DNA of 64,000 bases from the NCBI GenBank assembly GCA_005778115.1, contig SXKJ01000145.1, forward strand, positions 13,916 to 77,915, in the 5' to 3' direction. Below, piece after piece: positions 6,521 to 58,928 of the stretch (position 1 is its first letter; every line of letters begins with the position of its first letter). Made by a program: the position numbers and the translations under genes. The stretch comes from Planctomyces sp. GTDB taxonomy: Bacteria; Planctomycetota; Planctomycetia; Planctomycetales; Planctomycetaceae. The notes beneath the pieces are model-generated. The model did no database searches and was not told where the DNA came from. It saw only the letters and a list, made by a program, of their open reading frames with translations.

Positions 6521-9500
6521 TTAGATGTCGGAATGAAAAGCGCTCTCCGGGTCTTCGGGATCGAGAGAGGCGGACTTAGTCGTGGCACGCGATTGAACGA
6601 TCGCGAAGATGGCGGGCAGGATCAGCAATGTTGCGAACGTGGCGGCCAGTAGACCACCCATCACGGCTCGGCCGAGCGGTGCGGTTTGCTGGCCGGATTC
6701 GCCGAGGCCCAAGGCCAGTGGCAACATGCCGGCGAGCATGGCGGCGCTGGTCATCGTGATCGCTCGCAAGCGGCTGGTCGCGCCGTACACAGCGGCGATG
6801 TGGGACGGGCACTCTTGCCCGTCAGTCCCATCTTCGGGTCGGGCAAGAGTGCCCGACCTACGGCGTTCCTCGGCGAACGTCACCAACAGAATCGCATTGG
6901 CCATCGCGACGCCGAGACTCATGATCGCGCCGATGAAGCTTTGGATGTTGAGCGTGCTGCCGGTCAGCAGCAGCGATAGCGCGACACCGGTGATCACGGC
7001 CGGCGCGGTTGAGACCGTGATGAACGCCAGTCGCCACGACTGAAAGTTGGCGGACAACATCAGGAAGATCACGAGCACCGCCAGCAGCAGTCCGATGCCC
7101 AGTCCATTCATGATCGAGTTCAGCGGGGGGATTTGGCCGCGTAGTTCGTGTGAAATGGTGGGGGGCTTCGGCGGGTCGGGCTTGTCAGCGGCTTTCGCGG
7201 CGGCGACCGCTTCGGCGTGAGATTTCGCTTTGGCGTCCGCGTCTTGTTTGGCGACGGCGTCCAGGGCTTGCCTGATTTGTTGCGAGACCGCGCCGATATC
7301 AGCTCCGGCGATGTTCGCGGTGAGGCTGAGTTCACGTTTCATGTTGTAACGGTCATATTCGCCGGGCGCGACCGCGTTCGTGAGCGACGCGACATCACGC
7401 AGCAACAGCGGTTGCCCCGCATGACTTCCACTGCCCCGTTGGATCGGAACTGCTCCGAGATCTTCGACACTGTCGAGCTGCCGCTGGGGAATCTCAACCT
7501 GCACTTGATAGCCGATGCCGGTCTTCGGATCGGGCCAGTAGTTCGGGACGACGAAGCGGCTCGACGATGTCGCAGTCACGACCGAGCGGGTGACGTTCGA
7601 CATCGTCGTGCCGCTCATCCCGGCTTTCTCGCGATCGACTTTGATCTCGACGGTCGGATAGTCGAGCGATTGTGCGACCTGCATGTCTCGGATCGCGGGG
7701 AGTTTCGTCAGCGCGGCTTGAACTTTGCCGATGTACTCGCGGTTCTCGTCAAGATTGCCGCCACGAGCGGCGATCTCGATCGGCGTGGCCGAGCCGAAGC
7801 TCATGACTTCGCTGATGATGTCGGCCGGCTCGAACGAGAACCGCACGTCGGGAAAACGATTGCGGAACTCGGCGCGAATTTCTTCTTTCATTGCTTCCGT
7901 GCTGATCCCGGAATCGGGTTTGAGGGCGATTCGCAGTAATCCTTCCTCCGGCCCACGCGAGAAGTGATAGACCGAATTGATTGGAAAGCTCGCCGGTACG
8001 GTGCCGATGTAGCCGAGCGTCAACCCGACGTTGTTCTCGCCGACTTTTTGTTTGACCGTGTCGAGGATCTTCAGCGCGATCTGCTCAGTCGTGTCGATAT
8101 GCGTGCCATCGGGAGCCCGGAATCGCAAACGGAATTCGCCAGCATCGACGGTGGGAAAGATCTCGATGCCGAGTTGGCCGCTCGCCCAGAAGAGGGTTGC
8201 ACCGCAGGCGACGAGGTAAGCCGGAACGATAAGCCAACGCAGGCGAACAGAGGCAACGACAAAGCGGGAGAACCAACCGTTTGCTGGCGAGCCGGAGGGC
8301 GTTAGCCCCCGGACAATCTGCAACGTCCGGGGGCTAACGCCCTCCGGCTCACCAAGTCGGCTTTCATTCGACGAGCTGCGCAATAGCCACGTCGAGACCA
8401 CCGGCACGAAGGTGCTCGACAGGATGTAGGAGGCGATCATCGAGAAACCAACCGCGAGCGACAGCGGGACGAAGAGTTCGCGAGCAGCTCCCTGCATGAA
8501 GAAGCTCGGTACAAAGACCGCCAGGATGCAAAGCATCGCCAGCAATCGCGGGATCGCGGTTTGAGCGTTGCCCATCCGCACGGCCCAGGCGATTGAGTTC
8601 ACACGCCGCATCTGCGTGTGGATGTTTTCGATTTCCACCGTCGCTTCATCGACCAAGATGCCGACCGCCAGGGCGAGTCCGCCGAGGGTCATCAGGTTGA
8701 TCGTCTGACCGCACAGCCACAGGCCCACGATCGACGCGGCGATCGCCAGCGGGATATTGAGCACGACGACCAACGCGCTCCGCCAGTCGCGCAGGAACAC
8801 CAACACCATCAGGCCAGTGAGGATCGCCCCCAGGACTCCTTCGGTCGCAAGGCTGTTGATCGCGCGTGTGACATACGGTGACTGATCGAACTCGAACGAG
8901 ACGTTGATGTCCGGCGGAACTTCGGCGCGGAACTTCGGCATCGCCCCTTTGATTTCGTCGATAACGCTCATAGTGGAAGCGTCGGCTCGCTTGGTCGCGA
9001 GGATGTAAACCGCTCGGCGGCCGTTGACGAGCGAGTAGCCAGCCGTGATGTCGGCGGCGTCTTCGATGACACCGATGTCGCGCAGATAGACGGTGCTCGC
9101 GCTGCCGATCGAGGAGGCTCCACCAGTTGGTCCGCCTCCCGTACCGACTTTGATCGGGATGTTGCCCAGCTCGCGAATGTCTTTGACCATCGCGTTGGTC
9201 GGGACCATCGGATAGCTGTCACCGATCTTCAGATTGCCCGACGGGCTGACGGCATTTCCAGCCACGAGCGCACTGACGACGTCATCCGGTGCGATGCCAT
9301 ACGCTCGCAAGCGATCTGGGTCGGTCCTCACGACGATGCTGCGTGCGCTCCCGCCGAAGGGGGGCGGAGCGCTCACACCAGGGAGCGCCGAAAACATCGG
9401 CCGCACTTTCATCAGCGCCATGTCGGAGATTTCGGCAATCGTGCGAGTCTCAGACGAAAAGACCAGATAGCCGACCGGCACGCTGCCAGTGTCGAACCGC

Positions 9501-9940
9501 ATGACGAACGGCGGAACGGTGCCGGGAGGCATCATGGCTCGCGAGCGATTGACGTAATTGATCGTCTCGGCCATCGCCTGAGCCATGTTCGTCCCCGGAT
9601 GGAACATGAGCTTCATCAACGCTGTTCCTTGAACGTTGCGGCTCTCGACGTGATGGATGCCGTTGATGTAAAGAAAATGGTACTCGTAGTAATTGGTCAG
9701 CAACCCTTCCATCTGAGCCGGGTCCATGCCGCCATACGGCTGGCAGACGTAAATCACCGGCAGGTTGAGCGCCGGGAAGATGTCGATGGGCATCCGCTTG
9801 AGCGGCAATTCGATGCCGACCTTCGCCAGCGCGGAATCAAACGCCTTCGGCCGCACGGCAACGAACGCCGTCAGCAGGACAGCAATGATCCCGACCATCA
9901 CGGTGATTGGGCGACGCAGAGCAAAAATAATCGGGTTCAT
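6521..9940 (-). CDS. Efflux RND transporter permease (AcrB/CzcA superfamily), 1139 aa, carrying two in-frame palindromic insertions
   Basis: Internal ATG at 9940 gives MNPIIFALRRPITVMVGIIAVLL. The protein has a 12-TM RND layout, DQSPYVTRAINSLATEGVLGAILTGLMVLVFLRDWRSALVV, and TMTSAAMLAGMLPLALGLGESG near the C-terminus. The ORF track extends the ORF to 10162, but that extension looks non-coding. Confidence 0.9.
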   Translation of the reverse strand: MNPIIFALRRPITVMVGIIAVLLTAFVAVRPKAFDSALAKVGIELPLKRMPIDIFPALNLPVIYVCQPYGGMDPAQMEGLLTNYYEYHFLYINGIHHVESRNVQGTALMKLMFHPGTNMAQAMAETINYVNRSRAMMPPGTVPPFVMRFDTGSVPVGYLVFSSETRTIAEISDMALMKVRPMFSALPGVSAPPPFGGSARSIVVRTDPDRLRAYGIAPDDVVSALVAGNAVSPSGNLKIGDSYPMVPTNAMVKDIRELGNIPIKVGTGGGPTGGASSIGSASTVYLRDIGVIEDAADITAGYSLVNGRRAVYILATKRADASTMSVIDEIKGAMPKFRAEVPPDINVSFEFDQSPYVTRAINSLATEGVLGAILTGLMVLVFLRDWRSALVVVLNIPLAIAASIVGLWLCGQTINLMTLGGLALAVGILVDEATVEIENIHTQMRRVNSIAWAVRMGNAQTAIPRLLAMLCILAVFVPSFFMQGAARELFVPLSLAVGFSMIASYILSSTFVPVVSTWLLRSSSNESRLGEPEGVSPRTLQIVRGLTPSGSPANGWFSRFVVASVRLRWLIVPAYLVACGATLFWASGQLGIEIFPTVDAGEFRLRFRAPDGTHIDTTEQIALKILDTVKQKVGENNVGLTLGYIGTVPASFPINSVYHFSRGPEEGLLRIALKPDSGISTEAMKEEIRAEFRNRFPDVRFSFEPADIISEVMSFGSATPIEIAARGGNLDENREYIGKVQAALTKLPAIRDMQVAQSLDYPTVEIKVDREKAGMSGTTMSNVTRSVVTATSSSRFVVPNYWPDPKTGIGYQVQVEIPQRQLDSVEDLGAVPIQRGSGSHAGQPLLLRDVASLTNAVAPGEYDRYNMKRELSLTANIAGADIGAVSQQIRQALDAVAKQDADAKAKSHAEAVAAAKAADKPDPPKPPTISHELRGQIPPLNSIMNGLGIGLLLAVLVIFLMLSANFQSWRLAFITVSTAPAVITGVALSLLLTGSTLNIQSFIGAIMSLGVAMANAILLVTFAEERRRSGTLARPEDGTDGQECPSHIAAVYGATSRLRAITMTSAAMLAGMLPLALGLGESGQQTAPLGRAVMGGLLAATFATLLILPAIFAIVQSRATTKSASLDPEDPESAFHSDI
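6801..6862. repeat. Double-hairpin palindrome (GACGGGCActctTGCCCGTC ... GTCGGGCAagagTGCCCGAC-CTAC) inside the RND pump CDS
   Basis: Read from the sequence. On the coding (minus) strand it reads GTAGGTCGGGCA..., which matches the GTAGGTC-hairpin family. It encodes ...TLARPEDGTDGQECPS... in the pump. Confidence 0.75.
8286..8353. repeat. 28-bp-arm palindrome inside the RND pump CDS; sister copy of the intergenic element at 38956..39026
   Basis: GGCGAGCCGGAGGGCGTTAGCCCCCGGA (8286..8313) pairs with TCCGGGGGCTAACGCCCTCCGGCTCACC (8326..8353). It encodes ...GEPEGVSPRTLQIVRGLTPSGSP... in frame. Confidence 0.85.
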
Positions 9941-10054
9941 GCGGCGTATCGGAATGAAACGACGGGCCAACATCAAGCTGGAAATCTTATCGGACTTGCG
10001 GTCGCGAACAGATTCGTGACCATATTGGGAACAACCCAAACCGAGGCGTCCCAC

Positions 10055-10690: not shown

Positions 10691-10790
10691 CAAAACCGAC
10701 GTAGGTCAGGCTTTCCAGGCGGACTCGATCAACGATTAACGTGATTTGGCCAATTCGAGTCAGGCTGGAAAGCCTGACCTACGGTTTTTG
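10691..10790. repeat. About 36-bp-arm palindrome of the GTAGGTCAGGC-hairpin family
   Basis: CAAAACCGACGTAGGTCAGGCTTTCCAGGCGGACTCGA (10691..10728) pairs with TCGAGTCAGGCTGGAAAGCCTGACCTACGGTTTTTG (10755..10790). It lies between the DsrE-like and MetE-like genes. Confidence 0.85.
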
Positions 10791-10812: not shown

Positions 10813-12342
10813 ATGCAATACGTCGATCGGCACGCATTGGAACCCGACGTCAGCTTTAACGGCGGTGACATGGACTGCGGCAGCGGGTTGCTGTTGCTTA
10901 TTCGTCGCCACATGGACCCGCTGCGAGCCGGCGGATTGCTCGAAATCCGATCGACCGAATCGAGTGTCGAAGAGGATCTGCCAGCGTGGTGCCGCATGAC
11001 CAAGAACGAATTGGTTTCGTGCGTACGATCAAACTCGGAATGGCGTTTTCTTGTCTGCCGAGGGTCTCTCGCGGATCGAGAGCCGACGAGTATTCCAGGT
11101 AGCCGACATCGTGAGAGTTCGGACCGAACTCTCACGGCTTTAGCTACGGCCACGCCTCTGCCCGCACCAGCGCCTCCGATCGCGCCACTGTCGGTCATGG
11201 GGATCGGGAGTTGGCCGCGGCCGCGCTGGATGTTGCAAACGATTCACGAGCACATGGAAGGGCGGCTGACGAATCAGGAGTTTCACGAGATTGGTGACGA
11301 CGCAGTGCGGTTCGCGGTTGATTCGCAGCTTAAAGCCGGTGTCGATGTCGTGACCGATGGCGAACAGCGTCGCGACAGCTACGCCAGTTTCGTTGGCGGA
11401 CTGCTCGATGGCTGCCAACTTATTCCAATCACCGACCTGCTGCCGTATGTGGACGATCCAGTAAAGTTCGAAGCCGAGTTGCGGGCGCTCGATGTACCGG
11501 CGGGAAGCGTGCGGCATCCGGCTGTGTTCGGACCGATCCGTCGCAGCCGACCGCTGGCCGTTCATGAAATTCAGTTCGCCAAAACGTTGACGGATCGACC
11601 CATCAAAGTTGCTCTGCCTGGACCGTACCTGCTGACTCGCACGATGTGGATGGACTGCATCACCGATCGCGTGTACGAGACTCGTGACAAACTCGCCGAC
11701 GATGTGGTGCGTGTGATGCGTGAAGAGTTGCAGGGATTGCTCGCTGCGGGTGCGGCACTCGTGCAGTTTGACGAACCGGTCCTCACCGAAGTGGTCTTTG
11801 GCCAATCGGCCGGCAATCGCAGTTTCATGTGCGGCGCTCTCAGCGAGAAGCTCGGCACGGTGGAGGAACTGGCGTTCGCAGGCGAATTGATCAATCGCGT
11901 CGTCGAGGGAATTCCACGCGATCGGACGGCTCTGCACATCTGCCGTGGCAATTGGACTCGCGACGAATCGGTCGCGTTAGCCGGCAGCTATGAACCGCTC
12001 GTGCCGCTGCTGAGGTCTCTCAAGGTGGGCACGTTTTTTCTGGAGCTGTGTACTCCGCGCGCCGGCGAGATCGACGTGCTGGCCGCGCTTCCGGACGACT
12101 GCCGCATCGGCGTGGGAGTCGTCAATCAAAAGCTTGATGTGATTGAATCGATAGAAGAGATCATGGCCAAGGCCGAGATTGCCATCCGTGTCTTTGGCCC
12201 ACACCGAGTCTTGATGAATCCTGACTGCGGCTTCGCCACGTTCGCCGACAACCCGGTGGCGTCCGCACATGTCGCCACAGAAAAGCTCGCGGCGATGGTG
12301 AGCGCCGCTCGGCAATTGCGAACCCGACACCACGTCGAGTAG
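10813..12342 (+). CDS. Fusion protein: N-terminal TusA-like domain plus C-terminal cobalamin-independent methionine-synthase-like (MetE C-terminal/UROD-fold) Zn-methyltransferase domain
   Basis: N-terminus: GGDMDCGSGLLLLIRRHMDPLRAGGLLEIRSTE...AWCRMTKNELV. C-terminus: GSWPRPRW, VVTDGEQRRDSY, LVQFDEP, and the MetE-type Zn ligand pattern LHICRGN (H-x-C), FLELCTPRAGE and NPDCGFATF. Confidence 0.75.
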   Translation: MQYVDRHALEPDVSFNGGDMDCGSGLLLLIRRHMDPLRAGGLLEIRSTESSVEEDLPAWCRMTKNELVSCVRSNSEWRFLVCRGSLADREPTSIPGSRHRESSDRTLTALATATPLPAPAPPIAPLSVMGIGSWPRPRWMLQTIHEHMEGRLTNQEFHEIGDDAVRFAVDSQLKAGVDVVTDGEQRRDSYASFVGGLLDGCQLIPITDLLPYVDDPVKFEAELRALDVPAGSVRHPAVFGPIRRSRPLAVHEIQFAKTLTDRPIKVALPGPYLLTRTMWMDCITDRVYETRDKLADDVVRVMREELQGLLAAGAALVQFDEPVLTEVVFGQSAGNRSFMCGALSEKLGTVEELAFAGELINRVVEGIPRDRTALHICRGNWTRDESVALAGSYEPLVPLLRSLKVGTFFLELCTPRAGEIDVLAALPDDCRIGVGVVNQKLDVIESIEEIMAKAEIAIRVFGPHRVLMNPDCGFATFADNPVASAHVATEKLAAMVSAARQLRTRHHVE

Positions 12343-13112: not shown

Positions 13113-14066
13113 CTAAAACTCTCCGACGGGCTTTCCGTCGTTCCGCACCGCGAGCTTATGCAGCACGTCGATATCGGTTGTGACATTCAAATTCGCGACA
13201 TGTCCGTCCGCAAAAGCGAAGTGGCAGGCACCGGGATGATGGCTCCCGAAGCGGCAATGCCAGGGACCGCTGAGATCTTCACCATGGGCGGCGATCTTGA
13301 ACCTCGGTTGCCCCACGTTGTCACGTCCGGCAAGCCGGTTGTAGTTGCGCGGGAAGTCGCCGTTGTAGATCGCCCCATCACCCCACGAGGGACCGCTCTG
13401 GCCGAACTTGCTCTCAGGCACATGCTTCTCGCCGACGAGGAAAACGTTGCTGGTTCCATCCTTGAAGTCACGCAGTCCCGTCCGCGACTGAGTTTTCACG
13501 ATTTGGCTGCCGGTCAGTTGCGACTGAGCCTCGCACATGGCCCCGTTGCACAGCGGATTGTCCACGATCGCGTTGACGTGAGCTCCGCCGTTGGCCGCGT
13601 AGTCCCCCAACGCACCTGGGTAAGGTTGGGTATCAGGCAGGCCGGTGCTGGAGATTTCAAACTGAGTGCTCAGCATCGGAGCCCGCCGACTCGGACAATA
13701 GAACATCGGGATCGACGTGGTTCGCGCGACGGGCTTTTGCAGATAGTAGGTGTCGTTGAGATTCCACTGTTTGTAGAGCGGAGTCTGATCAATGTAGGGC
13801 AGGATTTGAACGACCCAACTCGCATGCTGTGGCCCCAGCCGGCTGGATGGCAGAGTTCCCTTCACTTCATGGAAGTTCTGGATCGCCAAGCCGATCTGCT
13901 TGAGGTTGTTCTTACATTGACTGCGGCGTGCCGCCTCACGCGCCTGTTGTACGGCGGGCAACAGCAAGGAGATCAGCACGGCGATGATGGCAATCACCAC
14001 GAGCAATTCGATCAAAGTGAATCCAGATCGCGCGCGGATCGAGTTGCGAGTACGAAGACATTTCAT
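13113..14066 (-). CDS. DUF1559 domain protein with N-terminal prepilin-type cleavage/methylation motif (H-X9-DG protein)
   Basis: Translation has GFTLIELLVVIAIIAVLISLLLPAVQQAREAARRSQCKNNLKQIGLA, and near the C-terminus HPGACHFAFADG, which is H-X9-DG. Confidence 0.9.
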   Translation of the reverse strand: MKCLRTRNSIRARSGFTLIELLVVIAIIAVLISLLLPAVQQAREAARRSQCKNNLKQIGLAIQNFHEVKGTLPSSRLGPQHASWVVQILPYIDQTPLYKQWNLNDTYYLQKPVARTTSIPMFYCPSRRAPMLSTQFEISSTGLPDTQPYPGALGDYAANGGAHVNAIVDNPLCNGAMCEAQSQLTGSQIVKTQSRTGLRDFKDGTSNVFLVGEKHVPESKFGQSGPSWGDGAIYNGDFPRNYNRLAGRDNVGQPRFKIAAHGEDLSGPWHCRFGSHHPGACHFAFADGHVANLNVTTDIDVLHKLAVRNDGKPVGEF

Positions 14067-22732: not shown

Positions 22733-22735
22733 CCT

Positions 22736-22800
22736 CGTGGGGCAGGTTTTCAACCTGCCCGTCTTTCCTTTGTTGATGCAGGTCGAAAGCCTGCCCCACG
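22736..22800. repeat. Palindromic element CGTGGGGCAGG...CCTGCCCCACG with an internal hairpin
   Basis: CGTGGGGCAGGTTTTCAACCTGCCC (22736..22760) pairs with GCAGGTCGAAAGCCTGCCCCACG (22778..22800). It lies between the DUF1553 and DUF1501 genes. Confidence 0.8.
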
Positions 22801-22828
22801 ATTAACCCGTTTCAGAAAGGAACTCGAC

Positions 22829-38468: not shown

Positions 38469-38948
38469 GTGGACAAACTGCGTGAAAAATTGACCGAGGA
38501 TATTCCGCCGAAGACCGGCATGATGAGTGGCGCAAAGCGACTCTCGACAGACGCGGCGGCGACGACATCCGAGTTGCGTGACTTCGTGCGCAGCTTGAAA
38601 GGCCGCAGTCCGCAGGAAGTGATGGGAATCGTCGCGTCGAATGCGCTGACTCAGGCGATGATCGGCTCGACGATTGCGACGGTCGTGTTGCTGGCGGTGC
38701 TGACCGTGCCATTCGCCTTTGGCAACTCGGCGAAAGCCAAGCCCACCAAGCCGGGGGCAGCTGCCGCCAATGTCGAACCGGCCAAGACCGACGCCGCATC
38801 CTCGAAGGCTGCAAATTCTGGCGACACTCCTTCGGAAGAGGACATCAAAAAGGCCAGCAAGGCGATGGGCTTGGACGAGACAAAAACGGCTGACCCGAAA
38901 AAGAATCCGCTCGACAGCTTCGACAACCTGCTGGACAAGGTGAAGTAG
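38469..38948 (+). CDS. Hypothetical single-TM protein with a Lys/Ala/Pro-rich tail (159 aa)
   Basis: GTG start. One TM segment, AMIGSTIATVVLLAVLTVPFAF, is followed by AKAKPTKPGAAAANVEPAKTDAASSKAA.... I saw no TonB C-terminal domain motif. Confidence 0.5.
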   Translation: MDKLREKLTEDIPPKTGMMSGAKRLSTDAAATTSELRDFVRSLKGRSPQEVMGIVASNALTQAMIGSTIATVVLLAVLTVPFAFGNSAKAKPTKPGAAAANVEPAKTDAASSKAANSGDTPSEEDIKKASKAMGLDETKTADPKKNPLDSFDNLLDKVK

Positions 38949-38955
38949 AAGTTTT

Positions 38956-39026
38956 GGCGAGCCGGGTGGCGTCAGCCCCCGGATGTCGTGGAGATGAGTC
39001 CGGGGGCTGACGCCACCCGGCTCGCC
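38956..39026. repeat. Perfect 28-bp inverted repeat with 15-nt spacer; sister of the copy inside the RND pump gene
   Basis: GGCGAGCCGGGTGGCGTCAGCCCCCGGA (38956..38983) pairs with TCCGGGGGCTGACGCCACCCGGCTCGCC (38999..39026). Confidence 0.9.
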
Positions 39027-39063: not shown

Positions 39064-40662
39064 ATGTTTCCACATCTGACATTCCCCCCGAAGCTCGTCA
39101 AACAGACGGCCATTTATCTGGCGGTCTGGGTGTTGTGCTTGGCGGACTGGATGTGGGGACGCTCGATCGAAACCTGGTGGCGAGCGTGGCCGGAGGGAAT
39201 CTGGTTTGCGCTGGGCGTGCCACTGTCGACGTATTGGATTGCGTGGACGGGTTGGCTGTGCCGGTTGGAGGACGGAGACAACGCGAATCTCATCGCCTTG
39301 CGGCGAATCGCGGGAGACCTTGGCTCCGCGACTCTGGATGAACGCTCGGACGAAACGGCGTTACTAGTTCGTCGAAATTTGGTGTGGAGCGTCTCGGCGA
39401 TTTTACTCTGGCAGGTGAGCGTCTTCTTCGCGGATGCGCTCGACCTGCCGCACATGCGAGTTGGCTTGGCGACGTGGGGAACCTGGAGCCTGTTCTTTCT
39501 CGGCATGGTGTGGGTGGTGTGGTTGGTTGAACGGGCATCGCGGTTCTATGAAGAGCGGCGTTACGAACGTCGGCGACGCGAGCAATCAGCGGCCATCGAG
39601 TTCGCGCGGTCCGCTCACCGAGCGACGCACGACGATGATGCGGACGACGAGCGAGTCCACAATCCGCTCGATCCGCACGCTTGGTATTACGGACGACGGG
39701 CGCGGAAGCTGAATCAATCGCTGACTTGGATGTCGGTCTATTCGTTGTGCTTTTCGATCGCGTTTCTGGTTTTCACACAAATCGGCGGTTGCAGTGACAT
39801 CTACGAAATGCCGGCCGGCGGCGGACAGCAGGCTCAGATCGCTCAGGCCGTGAAGATCCAGAAGATCATCAAGAAGAAGTTCGTGGTGAATCCGTTTTCG
39901 GCGATTAGCTTCAAAGTGCCGCCGATCGACGAGATCAAGCTGCAGCTTCAAGAAATCACACAGCACGCCTACACGGTCGGCTACGGCGAAGGAACGGGAG
40001 CGGGCTTCGCGGGCGGGACAAGCTCAGGCAAAGTTCGATTCCTGCGGCTGGAGTATTCCGGCGGCGACTGGGATCAGGACATGAGTGTGTACTCCGGCGA
40101 CAACTTGCTCCGCGAGTACGGTCTGCGCACGAAGCAGAAAGTGAACGACAAGGAAGAGACGCGGACCATCTCCGCGCTCAAGGCATTTCCGGCCGAGAAG
40201 TCTCCGCCGTTCGTGTACATGACCGGCGAGAAAAACATTTCGATCTCAGCCAACGAAGCGAAGACGTTGCGAGATTATCTGGTCGACAAGCACGGAATGT
40301 TGTTCATCGACAACGGTGGCAGCGGGCACTTTCACAACCAGGTTTTGTCGATAATGCGGCAAGTCCTCCCCAACGTTCGTCCGTCCCATGTGCCGCTCGA
40401 TGACACGATCCATCGCATCCCCTATCCGATTCCGTTCCTGCCGTATGTCGCCCCGCACGGCGGCAAAGAGGCGCTCGGCTGGCGAGTCGATGGCCGCTTG
40501 GTCGCGTATTACCACCCCGGCGACATCGGCGACGCCTGGGCCGACGGCCACGCCGGTGTAAAGCCGGAGATCACAGAGTTCTGCTATCAACTCGGCGTCA
40601 ACGTGGTCTTCTACGCTCACGCTGAGTACTCGAAGTGGCTGTTGTCGCGGATGAAAAAGTAA
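39064..40662 (+). CDS. Polytopic membrane protein with C-terminal DUF4159-like domain
   Basis: The N-terminus has about 5 TM segments. The C-terminus has LRLEYSGGDWDQD, PPFVYMTGEKNISISANEAKTLRDYLVDKHGMLFIDNGG, YYHPGDIGDAW and GVNVVFYA, which fits my recollection of the DUF4159 pattern. Confidence 0.7.
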   Translation: MFPHLTFPPKLVKQTAIYLAVWVLCLADWMWGRSIETWWRAWPEGIWFALGVPLSTYWIAWTGWLCRLEDGDNANLIALRRIAGDLGSATLDERSDETALLVRRNLVWSVSAILLWQVSVFFADALDLPHMRVGLATWGTWSLFFLGMVWVVWLVERASRFYEERRYERRRREQSAAIEFARSAHRATHDDDADDERVHNPLDPHAWYYGRRARKLNQSLTWMSVYSLCFSIAFLVFTQIGGCSDIYEMPAGGGQQAQIAQAVKIQKIIKKKFVVNPFSAISFKVPPIDEIKLQLQEITQHAYTVGYGEGTGAGFAGGTSSGKVRFLRLEYSGGDWDQDMSVYSGDNLLREYGLRTKQKVNDKEETRTISALKAFPAEKSPPFVYMTGEKNISISANEAKTLRDYLVDKHGMLFIDNGGSGHFHNQVLSIMRQVLPNVRPSHVPLDDTIHRIPYPIPFLPYVAPHGGKEALGWRVDGRLVAYYHPGDIGDAWADGHAGVKPEITEFCYQLGVNVVFYAHAEYSKWLLSRMKK

Positions 40663-40841: not shown

Positions 40842-42404
40842 ATGCGTCGTTCTCGTCGTGAATTCTTGGCGGATGTCGGCAGCGGGATGTTGGTCGCTGG
40901 AGTCGGATACAGCACAGCCCTCGACCTGGGATTATCCACGGTCAGAGCGGCGGAAGGTTCCGAGGCGAATGGGTTGACGTTCGGTGGTCTCGAACCGCTT
41001 GTCGGTTTGATGCAGGACACGCCGGTCAACAAGCTGCTCTCGACGCTGGTCGAGAAGATGCACGATGGCACGGACTTGAAGACCCTCGTGGCTGCCGCGG
41101 CACTCGCAAACGCTCGAACCTTCGGCGGCGAGGACTACATCGGCTTCCACACGATGATGGCCATGATGCCGGCCTATCAGATGTCTCAGGAACTGCCGAC
41201 CGAGAAGAAGGCTCTGCCCGTCTTGAAAGTGCTCTATCGAAACACGAATCGGATTCACGATTTCGGTGGACGCAAGAAAGAGGTTCTGCATCCCATCACA
41301 GCGGGCACGCTGCCAACGAGTGTCGTGCCGGGCGATGCGGTGCGGGCCGCCGTTCACAGCAAAGACATCGACAATGCAGAGAAGACATTCGCGGCGGCGG
41401 CGATCTCTCCGGAAGAAGCCTTCAATGCTGTGATGTATGCCGTCGATGACAACACCGAAGTGCATCGCGTCGTGCTGCCGTACCGAGCTTATGCGTTGCT
41501 CGATCTCGTCGGACCGGAGCAAGCGGTGACGATGTTGAGGCAATCGGTTCGTTACTGCGTGAAGAGCGAGCGAAACGTCAACCGCAACGCCGAATTCGAT
41601 CGGCCGCGCACGCTGTTGCCGAAGGTGTTCGATCAACACAAGCTCGCAGGCAAGACGCCAGGGACGCGGGTGCCGGATGATGCTTGGGTGGAATCCTTCT
41701 GTCAGACGCTCTTCAAGGCGACGCCCGATCAAGCCGCTGACTTCGCGGGGGCCGCTTTGGCCGAAGGGATCGCTCCCGATGCGATCTGCGAAGCGATCTG
41801 CCTGGCTGCGAACCAATTGGTCTTGCGCGACGTCGGACGTCGCGAGAAGGAAGTTCAACCGGGCAAGCCTCTGGGAAGCGTGCATGGCGATTCGATCGGC
41901 GTGCATGCGTCCGACTCGGCGAATGCGTGGCGGAACATGGTTAAGTTCAGCAATGCTCGCAATCAGTTCGCTTGCACGATTCTGGGGGCGTTCCAAGTTG
42001 CCTACGACCGCATCAATCGCGGTGGCGACTTCCTCAACTGGCAGCCTCGCCCGCACGCAGAGCATCTCGAAAAGATCACGACCCGCGATCCCAATAAGTT
42101 GTTGGCCGAAGCCGAAGCCGCGATCCGAGCAAACGAGCAAGCTCAGGCCGCCGCGATCGTGCATCTGATCGGAGAGTTGCGTCATTCGCCGCGACCGGTG
42201 CTCGATCTGTTGTTGAAGTATGCGATCACCGAAGACGGTGCTCTGCACGCCGAGAAGTACTACCGCACCGCCAGCGAAGAGTTCGCCAACATGCGGCAAC
42301 CGTTCCGCTGGCGACAACTCACGGCGCTGGCCCGCGTCACCGCCAGCGAATTTGGTTCGCCCGCTGCCGGTTGTGATGAGGCAATGGAGTTATTGAAGGT
42401 GTGA
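40842..42404 (+). CDS. Hypothetical protein with twin-arginine-type signal (520 aa), family not recognised
   Basis: Internal ATG at 40842 gives MRRSRREFLADVGSGMLVAGVG. The protein looks all-helical. Its stop overlaps the start region of the next gene (GTGAgcATG). Confidence 0.6.
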   Translation: MRRSRREFLADVGSGMLVAGVGYSTALDLGLSTVRAAEGSEANGLTFGGLEPLVGLMQDTPVNKLLSTLVEKMHDGTDLKTLVAAAALANARTFGGEDYIGFHTMMAMMPAYQMSQELPTEKKALPVLKVLYRNTNRIHDFGGRKKEVLHPITAGTLPTSVVPGDAVRAAVHSKDIDNAEKTFAAAAISPEEAFNAVMYAVDDNTEVHRVVLPYRAYALLDLVGPEQAVTMLRQSVRYCVKSERNVNRNAEFDRPRTLLPKVFDQHKLAGKTPGTRVPDDAWVESFCQTLFKATPDQAADFAGAALAEGIAPDAICEAICLAANQLVLRDVGRREKEVQPGKPLGSVHGDSIGVHASDSANAWRNMVKFSNARNQFACTILGAFQVAYDRINRGGDFLNWQPRPHAEHLEKITTRDPNKLLAEAEAAIRANEQAQAAAIVHLIGELRHSPRPVLDLLLKYAITEDGALHAEKYYRTASEEFANMRQPFRWRQLTALARVTASEFGSPAAGCDEAMELLKV

Positions 42405-42406
42405 GC

Positions 42407-44887
42407 ATGAAACGCTGGTTGATCGCATTCGCCGTCCTCGTTTTGGGGGCGGCGAATTTTTTCGTTCTGGGACAGGACGCTTCGCCGAAAGGCGAAACGG
42501 CCGCGGCCGATCTCGATTTCTTCGAGAGGCGGGTCCGACCGCTGTTGGTGCAGCGCTGCTTTGAGTGTCACTCGGCGAAGGCGGAGAAGTTGAAGGGTGG
42601 ATTGCTGCTCGACAGCCGCGAGGCGATTCTCACGGGAGGTGATACCGGACCGGCGGCGGTGGTCGGCGATGTCGAGAAGAGCCTGATCGTGCAGGCGATT
42701 CGATTCGACAACGAGAACGTACAGATGCCTCCGGCGGGAAAATTGCCGGAGGCGGAGATCGCCGTCCTGACCGAATGGGTGCGTCGCGGACTTCCGTTCC
42801 CGGCGGTCAATGCGGCAAAGGCAAACCGACGAGCCATCGACATCGCTGAAGGGAAGAAGCATTGGGCGTTTCAAAAGTTCGTAGTTCCGCCTTTAGGCGG
42901 TTCTCCCACGGACCGCCTCCAGGCGGAACTACGAACTCGGATCGACGACTTCATCCACACGGCACAGCGCAAGCACGGATTATCGCCGTCGCCAGAGGCA
43001 TCCAAGGGAACTCTGATTCGGCGATTGACGTTTGATTTGCTCGGCTTGCCGCCGTCACCGGAGGACGTTCAAGAGTTTCTCGCGGATGAATCTCCCGATG
43101 CTTACGAGCGACTCGTCGAGCGATTGCTGGCTGATCCCCGATTCGGCGAGCGTTGGGCACGGATGTGGCTCGATCTGGCGCGGTATTGTGACATCGGTGA
43201 GTCGTGGCGAACCGGCGAAGGGCAGCCGTGGCTGTTTCGCGATTGGGTCGTGAGGACGATGAACGAAGACCTGCCGTATGACGAGTTTGTTCGCAAGCAA
43301 TTGGCGGCCGATCTGCTGCCCGACTTCCAGCCGACCGACGCGGCGGCGCTGGGATTCCTTGGGCTCAGCCCTTCGTATTGGAAGGAATTGAAGCTCGACC
43401 ACAATGTCATCAAGCAGGTTGTCTCGGAGGAGTGGGAAGAAAGGATTGAGGCGATCGGCGGGACGTTTCTGGGACTGACTCTGGCGTGTGCACGATGTCA
43501 CGACCACAAGTTTGACCCGATCACACAGCAGGATTACTACGGGCTGGCGGGAGTGCTGGCGAGCATCAAGATCGACGACAGGCCGATCATCGCCAAGCCG
43601 CTCGCGGATCAGGCGGCGGCAGCGCGAGCGCAATTGAAAGACTCGCAGGCTCAGTTGGACAAACTGCTCAAGGAGCCGAAGCTGTCTGACACCGCGACCG
43701 ACGAAGAGAAAGCGAAGGCTGCGGACGTCGCGAAGCAGGTCGAGTCGCTGCGAAACAGGATCTCGGCGTTGCAGCAGACGCCGCAGCTCAACACGCCGGT
43801 GGCATTTGGTGTCACCGAGGCGGCGATGATCGTGCTACCCGATGGGCCGAATCGGACGAAGATCGAATACAAGTCGAGTGAACCGCAAAACGTGGCGATG
43901 CAAATTCGCGGGAATGCGGCGAATCCCGGAGCGGTGGTGTCACGTCGGTTCGTGACGGTGCTTTCGCCCAATGAGCCAGCTCCATTCAAGAACGGCAGCG
44001 GGCGATTGGAATTGGCAAACGCGGTCGTCACTGATGCGGCTCCGCTGGCGGCGCGGGTCATCGTCAATCGGATTTGGGCACATCACTTCGGACGCGGTCT
44101 CGTGGCGACGCCAAGCAACTTCGGCACGCAAGGAGAGAAACCGACTCATCCGGAATTGCTGGATGACCTTGCCGCGCGATTCATCGAGCATGGCTGGTCG
44201 CTGAAGTGGCTGCATCGCGAAATCGTGTTATCGGGGACTTATCGGCAAAGTTCGGCCGACCGCCGAGAGCCGACAGCCGAAAGCCGTTATCACACTTCTC
44301 CCGACGAAGGCAAAGTGGATCGACGGCTGTCGGCTGTCGGCTCTCGGCATTCGGCCGATCCGGAGAATGTTTGGCTGGCGCGAATGCCGGTGCGGAAGTT
44401 GGACGTTGAGGCTTGGCGGGACTCAATGCTCATGGCAACGGAAGAATTGGATCGCCGCGTTGGTGGTGTTCCGCAGGAGTTGAGCGAGACGGGGAATGTT
44501 CGGCGGACGGTTTATGGTCTCATCCGGCGACGTGAGTTGTCGGACTTGTTGCGGCTACATGATTTTCCTGATCCGGTTGCTCACAGCGGATCGCGGACGC
44601 CGACGACGACTCCGTTGCAGCAGCTCTTTGTGTTGAACAGCTCGTTTCTGCAAGCTCGCGCGGCGGCGTTGGCCGGTCGGGTGTTGCGTGAGTACCCGCA
44701 AGACACGGCGGCTCAGATTCGAACGGTGCATCGTTGGCTCTTTGCTCGTGAAGCGACGGACGAAGACATTCAATTCGGGACTGAGTTCCTGGCAACGTCG
44801 CAAGCCGAGGGGGTAATTGCCGACCAGGCGTGGCGTCACTACGCTCAGGCTCTGCTGGCGACCAACGAGTTGCAGTTCGTCGAGTGA
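42407..44887 (+). CDS. PSCyt1 (planctomycete cytochrome c) + DUF1549 + DUF1553 + PSD1 domain protein, carrying two in-frame palindromic insertions
   Basis: Translation has FFERRVRPLLVQRCFECHS (CxxCH), LIRRLTFDLLGLPPSPEDVQEF, CARCHDHKFDPITQQDYY and a C-terminal LLATNELQFVE. Confidence 0.9.
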   Translation: MKRWLIAFAVLVLGAANFFVLGQDASPKGETAAADLDFFERRVRPLLVQRCFECHSAKAEKLKGGLLLDSREAILTGGDTGPAAVVGDVEKSLIVQAIRFDNENVQMPPAGKLPEAEIAVLTEWVRRGLPFPAVNAAKANRRAIDIAEGKKHWAFQKFVVPPLGGSPTDRLQAELRTRIDDFIHTAQRKHGLSPSPEASKGTLIRRLTFDLLGLPPSPEDVQEFLADESPDAYERLVERLLADPRFGERWARMWLDLARYCDIGESWRTGEGQPWLFRDWVVRTMNEDLPYDEFVRKQLAADLLPDFQPTDAAALGFLGLSPSYWKELKLDHNVIKQVVSEEWEERIEAIGGTFLGLTLACARCHDHKFDPITQQDYYGLAGVLASIKIDDRPIIAKPLADQAAAARAQLKDSQAQLDKLLKEPKLSDTATDEEKAKAADVAKQVESLRNRISALQQTPQLNTPVAFGVTEAAMIVLPDGPNRTKIEYKSSEPQNVAMQIRGNAANPGAVVSRRFVTVLSPNEPAPFKNGSGRLELANAVVTDAAPLAARVIVNRIWAHHFGRGLVATPSNFGTQGEKPTHPELLDDLAARFIEHGWSLKWLHREIVLSGTYRQSSADRREPTAESRYHTSPDEGKVDRRLSAVGSRHSADPENVWLARMPVRKLDVEAWRDSMLMATEELDRRVGGVPQELSETGNVRRTVYGLIRRRELSDLLRLHDFPDPVAHSGSRTPTTTPLQQLFVLNSSFLQARAAALAGRVLREYPQDTAAQIRTVHRWLFAREATDEDIQFGTEFLATSQAEGVIADQAWRHYAQALLATNELQFVE
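42878..42936. repeat. Palindrome GTTCGTAGTTCCGCC...GGCGGAACTACGAAC inside the PSCyt/DUF1553 CDS
   Basis: Arms at 42878..42900 and 42913..42936. It encodes ...KFVVPPLGGSPTDRLQAELRT.... A sister copy is at 46389..46455. Confidence 0.85.
44253..44356. repeat. About 104-nt palindrome (GCCGAGAGCCGACAGCCGAAAGCCGTTATCACACTT ...) inside the PSCyt/DUF1553 CDS
   Basis: Arms at 44253..44296 and 44313..44356. It encodes ...SADRREPTAESRYHTSPDEGKVDRRLSAVGSRHSA.... An intergenic sister copy is at 55812..55916. Confidence 0.8.
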
Positions 44888-45885: not shown

Positions 45886-47259
45886 ATGAGCGGCGAGACT
45901 CCCCTCCCGCGCGAATCGAGTTTGCCAGTCTTGTCCGAGGATGTCGTCCCACCGATCGCCGGATTGCCGAGCGAGCTGGTGAACCATCCGCGTTACCGAG
46001 TGATCCGCTCGTTGGGTTGCGGTGGAATGGGTGCCGTCTTCGAGGCGGAGCATCGGTTGATGCAGCGGCGTGTGGCGTTGAAGATCATCAAGCCGCAATG
46101 GCTGAGCAATTCGGAAGCGGTCGCTCGATTCCGACGTGAGATGCAGGCGGCGAAGCTGGTGCATCCGCACGTCGTCACCGCATTCGATGCCGAGCAAGCG
46201 GGGGATGTGCATTTCCTGGCGATGGAGTTTGTCGACGGAGTGAATCTCGCCGAGTTGGTTTCGCAGCGCGGGCCGTTGTCGGTCGAGATGGCGTGCGAGT
46301 GCATTCGGCAGGCGGCGTTGGGACTGCAACATGCGTACGAGCATGGGATGGTGCATCGCGATATCAAGCCAGGGAATTTGATGGTGACGTTCGTAGTTCC
46401 ACCTTCAGGCGGTTCTGGTTCTCAACGAAGACCACCTGAAGGCGGAACTACGAACGTCAAGATCCTCGACTTCGGGCTGGCTCGGTTTGCCAGCGAAGGG
46501 ATCGAAGGGGGCGACACATCGGCGGGGACGCTGCTGGGCACGCCGGACTTCATGGCTCCGGAGCAAGCACGGAATTCGCATGAAGCAGATATTCGGAGCG
46601 ATCTCTATAGCGTGGGATGCACGTTGTATTTTTTGCTGACTGGCGAGGTGCCCTATCCGGGTGGGAAGACCGCATTGGAGCGGGCGCTCGCACATGCCGA
46701 GCGTGCTCCGCAGTTGTTGGCGACTTTTCGTGGCGATGTGCCGCCGGCGCTGCAAGCGGTGCTCGATCGCTTGTTGGCGAAGCGGCCGGAGGATCGGTTT
46801 CAGACGCCGGCGGAACTTGCGGTGGCATTGGAGCCGTTCGTTTCTTCGTCGCAGTTTATCCGTCATCTGGCGGCTGGGTTGATTTCGAACGCTCCTGTTT
46901 CGCATCGGCCCATGGCGGCGGGATTGAAGCGAGTGTTGATGGCGTTCGGATGCGTCGGGTTCGTGTTGGTGATGGCGATCGTCGTGCAGGTGGCCACCGA
47001 TAAAGGGGACTTGCGAATTCGATCCGACGTTGACGGCGTGGTCCTGCTGCTCAGCCAAGAAGGCCAGGCGGTGTGGCGAATCGAGGCCGAGGCGGGGGAT
47101 TCGGTCAAGCGGTTGCCATCGGGGCAGTATGCGTTGGAGTTAAAAGATTCTCCGAACGACTTGCGATTGAGCACGACTCGCGTTGTGCTTCGCCGTGGTT
47201 GCTCGGCGGAGGTGGTTGTTTCACGCGAGCATCGGAATTCAATCAATCCTCCCCACTGA
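45886..47259 (+). CDS. Serine/threonine protein kinase with a C-terminal TM anchor and an in-frame palindromic insertion in the catalytic core
   Basis: Kinase motifs LGCGGMGAVFEA, VALKIIK, HRDIKPGNLMV, KILDFGLA and GTPDFMAPEQ are present, with a TM segment VLMAFGCVGFVLVMAIVVQV. Confidence 0.9.
   Translation: MSGETPLPRESSLPVLSEDVVPPIAGLPSELVNHPRYRVIRSLGCGGMGAVFEAEHRLMQRRVALKIIKPQWLSNSEAVARFRREMQAAKLVHPHVVTAFDAEQAGDVHFLAMEFVDGVNLAELVSQRGPLSVEMACECIRQAALGLQHAYEHGMVHRDIKPGNLMVTFVVPPSGGSGSQRRPPEGGTTNVKILDFGLARFASEGIEGGDTSAGTLLGTPDFMAPEQARNSHEADIRSDLYSVGCTLYFLLTGEVPYPGGKTALERALAHAERAPQLLATFRGDVPPALQAVLDRLLAKRPEDRFQTPAELAVALEPFVSSSQFIRHLAAGLISNAPVSHRPMAAGLKRVLMAFGCVGFVLVMAIVVQVATDKGDLRIRSDVDGVVLLLSQEGQAVWRIEAEAGDSVKRLPSGQYALELKDSPNDLRLSTTRVVLRRGCSAEVVVSREHRNSINPPH
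46389..46455. repeat. Palindrome GTTCGTAGTTCCACC...GGCGGAACTACGAAC inside the kinase CDS
   Basis: Arms at 46389..46412 and 46432..46455. It encodes FVVPPSGGSGSQRRPPEGGTTN, between the HRDIKPGN catalytic loop and the DFG motif. Confidence 0.9.
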
Positions 47260-47353
47260 GCTTGCCTCAGTGGTTCACGGGTTTCTGCGCTACTGACGTG
47301 TATGCGAGCGTAGTGCAGAGGCCCGCGAGCCACTGAGGCAAGCTCAGTGGGGG
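47251..47353. repeat. About 103-bp palindromic element with perfect 23-bp terminal arms; the kinase stop codon lies in the left arm
   Basis: CCCCACTGAGCTTGCCTCAGTGG (47251..47273) pairs with CCACTGAGGCAAGCTCAGTGGGG (47330..47352). Each arm is itself a hairpin, and there is an inner pair CTGCGCTAC/GTAGTGCAG. Confidence 0.9.
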
Positions 47354-50457: not shown

Positions 50458-50551
50458 TTCCTGGTTCGACTGTCTGATTTCTGTGTTGAAGACCCCACCC
50501 GGCTTGCCCGGATGGTGAATACGATGGTGAGCTAACGGGCAAGGGATCACT

Positions 50552-50607
50552 CCCCCTACCTCTCCTTTTCCTCCGCCGCAGGCAGAGGAAAAGGAGAGGT
50601 GGGGGGA
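50552..50607. repeat. 22-bp-stem hairpin (CCCCCTACCTCTCCTTTTCCTC ... GAGGAAAAGGAGAGGTGGGGGG)
   Basis: Read from the sequence, with one mismatch and an 12-nt loop, about 95 nt after the membrane-protein stop. Confidence 0.8.
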
Positions 50608-55811: not shown

Positions 55812-55916
55812 CCGGCCGAAAGCTGAGGGCCGAAAGCCGAAAGCCGTTATCACACTTTCCAGCAATCAAAAAGTGTGATAACGGCTTTCGGCGATCGGCT
55901 CACGGCTTTCGGCCGG
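55812..55916. repeat. About 105-bp palindrome (CCGGCCGAAAGC...GCCGAAAGCCGTTATCACACTT / AAGTGTGATAACGGCTTTCGGC...GGCTTTCGGCCGG)
   Basis: Arms at 55812..55857 and 55871..55916. It fills almost the whole gap between the DUF1501 gene and mnmE. Confidence 0.9.
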
Positions 55917-58743: not shown

Positions 58744-58788
58744 TTCATGGTCAACACGGAAAGTTCATGGAGAGGCGACAGATCCATT

Positions 58789-58883
58789 AGCCGGAACGCG
58801 CTAGCGTCCGGTTCGTGTGTCTGTTGCACCTCTGATTCAGGTGTCTGATGCACCTCCGAATCGGACGCTAGCGCGTTCCGGCT
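58789..58883. repeat. About 95-bp palindromic element with perfect 22-bp arms and an internal 19-nt direct repeat
   Basis: AGCCGGAACGCGCTAGCGTCCG (58789..58810) pairs with CGGACGCTAGCGCGTTCCGGCT (58862..58883). The inner direct repeats are GTGTCTGTTGCACCTCTGA and GTGTCTGATGCACCTCCGA. Confidence 0.9.
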
Positions 58884-58928
58884 GATTTGTCTCGAACCCA
58901 ACAACGCCTTTCAGGGAGTCCGCTCAAC

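Follow-up and report, generated by a model that had tools for sequence, protein, structure and literature searches.

REPINs are inverted doublets of repetitive extragenic palindromic (REP) sequences that form hairpins; compensatory changes between their arms are common, and they can fold alternatively into a single hairpin or a "clover" (PMC3116915). REP and REPIN elements are moved by HuH/Y1 enzymes, the REP-associated tyrosine transposases (RAYTs), which act on single-stranded hairpins (PMC3116915, PMC3733652). Intragenic REP monomers and dimers coding for 20 to 30 amino acids, sometimes twice per gene, have been described in, for example, Opitutus terrae of the PVC superphylum, and REPs carrying a GTAG tag have been reported in Planctomycetes (PMC3733652). 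Class 3 HuH-Y1 genes, found mainly in Planctomycetes and Acidobacteria and also in Proteobacteria, are flanked by atypical, high-copy, REPtron-like hairpins with a 5' foot of CnGA (PMC6006769). The Rickettsia palindromic elements (RPEs; Ogata et al. 2000, as summarized in PMC3733652) are palindromic repeats that lie in frame in functional genes, are translated, and occur in many unrelated proteins. Here, we analyze a palindrome inside an RND efflux pump gene of a Planctomyces sp. contig (SXKJ01000145.1), within a 64,000-nt stretch running from position 13,916 to 77,915 (the window). We consider it probable that this palindrome is a copy of a dispersed REPIN- or REP-like noncoding mobile family of planctomycete genomes and metagenomes, sitting in frame in a tolerant loop of the pump, and that its differences from an intergenic copy in the same window are those of older subfamilies.

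The pump gene (6521..9973, minus strand; start according to database protein P0001) encodes an AcrB/ACR_tran-type permease. The raw open reading frame (ORF), which extends to 10162, matches Pfam ACR_tran at 5e-159, and the 1,150-amino-acid product is intact. The first-pass annotation of this DNA had placed a long palindrome inside this gene, and we confirmed its position and its structure. The element, copy A (8285..8354, minus strand), has arms at 8286-8313 (GGCGAGCCGGAGGGCGTTAGCCCCCGGA) and 8326-8353, separated by a 12-nt spacer (8314..8325). The outer C and G of the spacer lengthen the stem, so that the arms extend to 30 nt (8285-8314 and 8325-8354; 97% complementary) around a 10-nt loop. 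The predicted hairpin energy of the sense RNA is −74.2 kcal/mol, compared to approximately −31 ± 3.6 kcal/mol for shuffled sequences (z of about −12; 0 of 200 shuffles as stable), and the window as a whole contains 13 strong hairpins versus none in each of five dinucleotide shuffles. Copy A is read in frame as (L)GEPEGVSPRTLQIVRGLTPSGSP, amino acids 541 to 563 of the pump. Alignment to solved RND pumps places this insert directly after the equivalent of transmembrane helix 6 (TM6) and before TM7, which agrees with the cytoplasmic loop assigned to it previously. An assembly artefact was ruled out, because four independent assemblies all contain this element.

The second copy in the window, copy B (38956..39026), consists of two arms (38956-38983 and 38999-39026) that are complementary at 28 of 28 positions around a 15-nt spacer, with a predicted hairpin energy of −76.7 kcal/mol. 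It is intergenic, beginning 8 nt past the stop codon of ORF 38469-38948(+) and ending 37 nt ahead of the ATG of a DUF4159 gene (39064-40662, plus strand). The translations given earlier for both elements are correct, with copy B reading GEPGGVSPRTHLHDIRGLTPPGS and both readings lying on the minus strand. Relative to copy B, copy A differs at three positions of the left arm (GT to AG, and C to T) and, in the right arm, at the three complementary positions (AC to CT, and G to A). Arm 2 of copy A (8326..8353) holds the sole unpaired difference, GGCTCGCC to GGCTCACC on the plus strand; on the coding strand this is GGC to GGT, a silent change in a glycine codon that leaves a G.U pair in the sense RNA. 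The comparison of the arms thus bears out the earlier count of three compensated differences and one unpaired change. We rejected an intrinsic terminator as an explanation for the hairpins: copy B is followed by TGATTCTCGC without a run of T, a scan returned no terminator-like site, and copy A lies inside an ORF. Rfam 15 gave no matches at gathering score across the whole window, and a plasmid collection contained no match to copy B.

Each arm is structured in its own right. The repeated unit is approximately 28 nt long and comprises an unpaired 5' tail, GGYGAG, followed by a bulged 8-bp hairpin (CCGG-N1N2-GGC / GTNA / GCCCCCGG) and a final A. Folded alone, arm 1 of copy A forms an unpaired GGCGAG tail and the stem CCGG(A)GGGC/GCCCCCGG with a GTTA loop, and the predicted energy is −16.5 kcal/mol for both arm variants in the window, each with the tail, the 8-bp bulged stem and the 4-nt loop; the GT-to-AG change between them merely shifts the one-base bulge. 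At N1N2, one G or more is present in 151 of the 157 arms sampled (exactly one in 149), against the 44% that random bases would give, and this one-G rule keeps the eight pairs and the bulge. The tail is GGC or GGT followed by GAG in 129 of the 157. Neither GTAG nor CGTC occurs at the foot of the stem, and CGTC is found in the apical loop of some variants only. Given that each arm is structured alone, the palindrome consists of two REP-like units in inverted orientation, and such a doublet is predicted to be able to form a single long hairpin or, alternatively, a pair of small hairpins. The first-pass annotation had contained neither this hairpin unit, nor a second palindrome in the pump (6800-6861), nor the pump loop as a recurrent insertion site.

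The family extends far beyond the window. A metagenome scan that required one arm but allowed any base at its three variable positions recovered at least 119 contigs; together with earlier loci, the census among the matches listed comprised 73 doublets and 61 single units, or 134 copies. A scan of genome contigs with the inner-stem pattern GCCCCCGGA-N6-30-TCCGGGGGC was too generic, matching GC-rich hairpins of Streptomyces and others, and produced only about eight useful planctomycete loci among the matches listed, including contigs from metagenome-assembled genomes (MAGs). Across 65 to 67 unique doublets among the matches listed, Watson-Crick pairs occupied the four variable positions in 44, 52, 43, and 53 cases, compared to permutation means of 31.7, 31.7, 20.2, and 27.5 (standard deviation of about 3.5). 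Registers slid by one position paired less at the variable positions, and at the N of the loop all four pair types were present. Covariation between the arms across the family is therefore real, and a larger sample, as had been called for, does contain a large excess of complementary pairs. The copies fall into subfamilies (GC..C, GT..C, AG..T, TG..T, GC..A, AG..A, and others) that are mostly concordant between arms. Copy B belongs to GT..C and copy A to AG..T. Perfect AG..T palindromes also occur at two unrelated loci (L082:1479 and L241:749) and in the pump of L002, and two AG..T doublets in L082 were found through the genome-contig scan.

The same 25-nt unit, exact and preceded by AAAAA, is also found inside a longer repeat in several metagenome contigs (L138 at 2074 and 2319, L214 at 697, L230, L224, and L210). 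Viewed on the opposite strand, this arrangement is a GC hairpin with CTCTTTTT after it, and from its sequence it may serve as an intrinsic terminator in some organisms. When a synthetic 48-amino-acid peptide made of two element translations was searched against a database of 5.8 billion proteins, only five candidates were returned, all of them tiny ORFs.

The anatomy of the family resembles that of the REPINs and RAYT-associated REPs of Pseudomonas fluorescens SBW25 and Escherichia coli (PMC3116915, PMC3337134), in which hairpin units are likewise inverted around a poorly conserved spacer. Conserved arms, compensatory changes, subfamilies, dispersal, single units alongside doublets, the lack of a target-site duplication, and the possible long-hairpin or two-hairpin ("clover") fold are shared features. 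In contrast to REPINs, the planctomycete element carries GGYGAG instead of GTAG, has a far larger intragenic share, and has spacers of 3 to 35 nt, a length that varies between subfamilies; furthermore, our search of 1.78 Mb turned up no cognate RAYT.

To place the compensated differences in time, we compared copy A with its orthologues. The pumps of L002, L003, and L004 carry an AG..T element at the same codon position as the window pump, and the element has been inherited among these four orthologues. Of the 58 arm columns in the four copies, 6 are variable, and each change affects one arm only. The changes in the window copy and L004 are three C-to-T substitutions that leave G.U pairs on the sense strand; L003 has three pair-breaking changes in its outer right arm. 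These in-place changes are mostly synonymous, with S to A in L003 as the sole amino acid replacement. The L002 copy is a perfect palindrome with 29-nt arms, so the single mismatch of the window copy is derived. A further orthologous pair from metagenomes (L140 and L234) shows single-arm changes as well. Because all later changes are single armed, no compensation took place within the pump, and because AG..T is common to four orthologous pumps and to unrelated loci, that subfamily predates the insertion. The first-pass annotation had proposed that hairpin potential is maintained in both copies either by selection on structure or by the mechanism that generates the copies. A copying mechanism, or selection on replicating source elements, fits our data better, whereas compensation within the pump does not survive the comparison and should not be carried forward as a claim. 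On the sequence evidence, the pump and intergenic copies are two preexisting subfamilies whose compensation belongs to the history of the family.

Comparison of the window with a contig of the same strain (L001; ENA ERZ27257035) gave 6 differences in 19,973 bases, and four of the six fall inside the 68-nt palindrome (window positions 8291, 8304, 8323, and 8334, equivalent to L001 positions 11683, 11670, 11651, and 11640). The four differences are mostly exchanges of G and T, reduce pairing, and alter three residues; they reflect either local hypermutability or sequencing or assembly error at an inverted repeat.

Insertion into coding sequence is not peculiar to the pump. Of the 134 sampled copies, 47 lie in stop-free frames that reach at least 60 codons on both sides and 87 do not; because 2 of the 10 ORFs inspected in full looked spurious, the true in-frame share is below 47 of 134. 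At least 13 copies are in evident genes, and taken together these figures make the family far more intragenic than classical REPs. The copies in long open frames are nearly always read as GEPGGVSPR...RGLTPPGSP. All five of the ORFs submitted to Pfam proved to be unrelated host proteins: a FecR-VIT-vWA protein (with two copies), a planctomycete PSD/PSCyt protein, a glucose/sorbosone dehydrogenase (GSDH), an AMP-binding ligase, and an amine oxidase. These five share one reading frame, GEPGGVSPR(T)...(V)RGLTPPGSP, which escapes both the stop codon that one right-arm frame contains and the Arg-rich readings. In this respect, the planctomycete element is like the RPEs, being in frame in intact, unrelated protein-coding genes, and our results suggest that planctomycete REP/REPIN-type repeats enter coding regions about as freely as RPEs do in Rickettsia. 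According to PMC3733652, RPE-1 is longer (approximately 100 to 150 bp), AT rich, and found in an obligate intracellular alphaproteobacterium, and the GC-rich planctomycete unit is unlikely to be related by sequence to RPE-1 to RPE-8. The studied family differs likewise from the intragenic GTAG/CGTC REPs of Opitutus in having neither tag. For annotation, such elements account for unusual inserts rich in Gly, Pro, and Ser and for many of the spurious small ORFs of planctomycete genomes; masking or flagging them is advisable.

Two different soil contigs (L192, 1153-1177; L193, 635-659; ...DGEPGGVSPRRNYAIPKDNPF...) encode homologous GSDHs that share an in-frame single unit of the family at one position, the second homologue having been recognized by eye. 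Its shared position in the two sequences suggests an old or recurrent insertion.

The pump itself contains two such loops. Approximately 25 orthologues with 76 to 88% identity were found in planctomycete MAGs, and at the TM6-TM7 site (site 1) they carry unrelated sequences; at about 70% identity, the loop of the orthologues is short and lacks both the motif and a palindrome. The comparison with orthologous pumps that had been proposed as a check therefore shows that this segment is not conserved protein sequence. In the 11 close-clade orthologues that we checked at the DNA level, the loop contains a long palindrome in every case, from at least eight families. The studied family occupies it in the window, L002, L003, and L004; L244 has an GTGGGGCAGGTTTCCAACCTGCCC-type element with 29-nt arms, which is also intergenic at position 22737 of the window; L245 and L247 have 31-nt arms, L246 has 25-nt arms, L248 has 26-nt arms and, next to them, a remnant unit from a sister family, L249 has perfect 34-nt arms, and L250 has a decayed GTAG palindrome. 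Site 2, the TM10-TM11 cytoplasmic loop, contains the second palindrome of the window pump (6800..6861, minus strand), an in-frame doublet of a GTAG-tagged family (GTAGGTCGGGCACTCTTGCCCG) that reads ...SGTLARPEDGTDGQECPSH... Close orthologues have at least four palindrome families at this site: the GTAG type in the window, L002, and L244; a second family in L003; a third in L004 and L250, which is the one found at site 1 in L245; and a fourth, GGCGAG tailed and sister to the studied family, in L246 and L249. The site is empty in L245, L247, L248, and all of the distant orthologues. Most of the families in these pump loops are dispersed repeats that are present in other contigs.

The sister family, seen at site 2 of L249 and L246 and at site 1 of L248, combines a GGCGAG tail and a GGC-GTCA-GCC apex with a different stem, GGCGAGCGGGGGGCGTCAGCCCCC; these shared features hint at a superfamily whose hallmark is the tail.

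In a neighbor-joining tree of 27 pump orthologues, the branching was star-like and the families were distributed patchily, so repeated replacement cannot be separated from strain recombination and poor resolution. At site 2, the filled alleles lack seven ancestral codons (ESVxSRD) that are present in the empty alleles of L245, L247, and L248, and this loss means that site 2 does not represent a clean insertion. It is conceivable, although we would give it only a small chance, that both pump loops are swap sites where one REPIN-like palindrome gives way in frame to another from any of many families, with the arms then under purifying selection about 10-fold above that at synonymous sites. Were this so, either a hairpin already resident in a coding region would act as the target or the template for integration, or an mRNA or DNA hairpin would have been domesticated, perhaps to make translation pause between the transporter halves, and hypervariable protein loops would regularly originate from selfish repeats. 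The occupation of one protein loop by at least eight families in orthologues is not described for the intragenic REPs of PMC3733652, and the competition of many families for the same loops among close orthologues also sets the planctomycete repeats apart from RPEs. The turnover of repeat families at particular protein loops among strains 85 to 90% identical in protein offers a natural system for studying insertion tolerance, and the same system bears on integration at existing hairpins and on the conservation of arms amid a freely evolving loop.

Taken as a REPIN-like mobile element, copy A would have arisen when an AG..T doublet inserted into the cytoplasmic linker after TM6, in an ancestor common to at least three other sampled genomes. 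Such an insertion would have survived because the linker tolerates extra residues and because the element offers a benign open frame, Gly/Pro/Ser rich and giving the same type of peptide from either strand. The three compensated differences would diagnose two subfamilies that were each palindromic before insertion, their arm complementarity stemming from propagation, either because the doublet is copied as a unit or through selection on hairpin-competent source elements. Mobilization would presumably occur in trans through a single-strand-DNA HuH/Y1 (RAYT-like) transposase that recognizes the small hairpin and its tail. Among 52 doublets tested at eight boundary offsets we found no target-site duplication of 3 to 5 nt, as is expected under HuH-type, unlike DDE-type, mobilization. 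Given the shared phylum and the atypical high-copy hairpins, a class 3 HuH-Y1 enzyme is a plausible candidate. The likeness is partial: GGYGAG adjoins the stem, unlike the CnGA of the class 3 hairpins, the class 3 motif (NHVH ... YV..EQ) was not found in the DNA that we searched, and the unit sequence has no occurrence in the supplement of PMC6006769.

Several observations weigh against this account. The 64-kb window holds only two copies of the family. Pairing is kept imperfectly, as 57% of the doublets in the sample show discordance between the arms at one, two, or all three variable positions. The unit lacks the GTAG/CGTC tag of classical REPs, and its tail is not obviously a CnGA foot. No credible HuH/Y1 gene, RAYT or class 3, was detected among 12,820 ORFs of at least 70 amino acids in 1.78 Mb (249 loci plus the window), in a search that combined phmmer, with IS200 TnpA and E. 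coli RAYT seeds, and the motifs HuH...Y(IV)xxNP and NHVH...YV..EQ; with this result and the atypical tail, mobilization is no more than inferred. Lastly, the arms of the four orthologous copies are 93 to 97% identical, compared to 56 to 66% at the fourfold-degenerate sites of the pump, although a neutral insert should decay. Variable columns make up 9 of 10 in the loop and 18 of 27 and 27 of 37 in the coding flanks, and the 10-nt loops are 47% identical and the upstream flanks 62%. Loop and flank similarities of this order fit one ancestral insertion followed by neutral-like divergence, so the arms appear to have been held back about 10-fold. At third codon positions, the arms are identical pairwise at 13 to 17 of 18 sites, which exceeds fourfold sites elsewhere in the gene. 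Some constraint beyond that expected of junk thus acts on the inserted copy; because the changes in place are mostly synonymous, it may act partly on the peptide.

This conservation is the best argument for a hairpin that is kept because it serves the host, as mRNA or as DNA, be it as a translational pause between the pump halves (TM1-6 and TM7-12), a signal for RNA processing or stability, or a protein-binding site; any strong palindrome would then do, with the repeats acting as a supply. The three changes in the window copy and L004 that leave G.U pairs on the sense strand and the long palindrome at site 1 in all 11 close orthologues agree with such a role, and homogenization by gene conversion is not an easy explanation for the steady arms, given that the other copies on these contigs are of different subfamilies and the pump copy is still AG..T. 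Yet the same families are found intergenically and in many unrelated genes, distant orthologues work without a palindrome, site 2 is empty in three close relatives, L003 carries pair-breaking changes in its outer stem, and the synonymous bias points at least in part to the peptide. We regard a host role as unlikely. Functional constraint on the peptide by itself (GEPxGVSPR...RGLTPxGSP), with the palindrome incidental, would account for there being only one amino acid change among the four orthologues; however, orthologues at 84 to 88% identity have wholly different palindrome-derived peptides at the site, and identical DNA occurs intergenically and in the five unrelated Pfam-confirmed protein families. 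We rejected a conserved pump motif on the orthologue comparison, and the probability we would assign to it is close to nil.

The remaining alternatives concern how the palindrome and its paired differences came about. Quasi-palindrome correction is an established mutational mechanism, and the three perfectly compensated pairs that separate the window copies are what arm-to-arm copying by hairpin-templated repair or template switching, or selection for pairing, could have produced within the pump. That they did arise there is very improbable, in that AG..T is older than the insertion, all six variable arm columns and the L140/L234 pair record single-arm changes, and all four differences between the window element and L001 reduce pairing. 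A classical miniature inverted-repeat transposable element (MITE), made of the terminal inverted repeats of a decayed insertion sequence and moved by a DDE transposase, would match the size of about 70 bp, the inverted-repeat arms, the dispersal, and the variable spacer, as well as the failure to find a HuH/Y1 gene in the DNA searched. Against a MITE stand the missing target-site duplication, the abundance of units alone (61 of 134 sampled copies), and the arm itself, whose conserved bulged hairpin and unpaired tail follow a REP design rather than that of a transposase-binding terminal repeat; we consider this origin improbable. With the REPIN-like mobile family preferred over these alternatives, two secondary results stand out and deserve follow-up, namely, the conservation of the arms in place and the turnover of many families at the two pump loops.

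Palindromes in frame are not limited to the pump within the window, which contains six of them in four genes. A GTAG-type doublet (11099-11147) lies in the linker between the TusA (amino acids 27 to 82) and Meth_synt_2 (amino acid 131 onwards) domains of ORF 10813-12342(+). Two doublets of two other families (42876-42937 and 44252-44358) are in frame in a PSCyt1-PSCyt2-PSD1 protein (ORF 42401-44887), one between domains and the other within the PSD1 region. The family of the 42876-42937 doublet recurs at 46380-46464, in frame inside the Ser/Thr kinase domain of ORF 45886-47259 (approximately amino acids 165 to 193 of a domain spanning 37 to 307). Further strong palindromes, mostly intergenic and from at least eight other families, are located at 796-863, 1262-1343, 10700-10783, 22735-22801, 47251-47352, 50551-50607, 55812-55916, and 58786-58886, and several of the other palindromes in the window carry the GTAG tag.

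Three of the orthologous loci also have a two-gene cassette, not present in the window, between the pump and membrane-fusion protein genes (L245, 6442-7121; L249, 5560-6239; L002, 13531-14258). It consists of an ORF of 85 to 102 amino acids and an ORF of 140 amino acids, the latter matching a PIN domain in L245, weakly in L249, and giving no domain hit in L002. By its composition, the cassette looks like a toxin-antitoxin pair.

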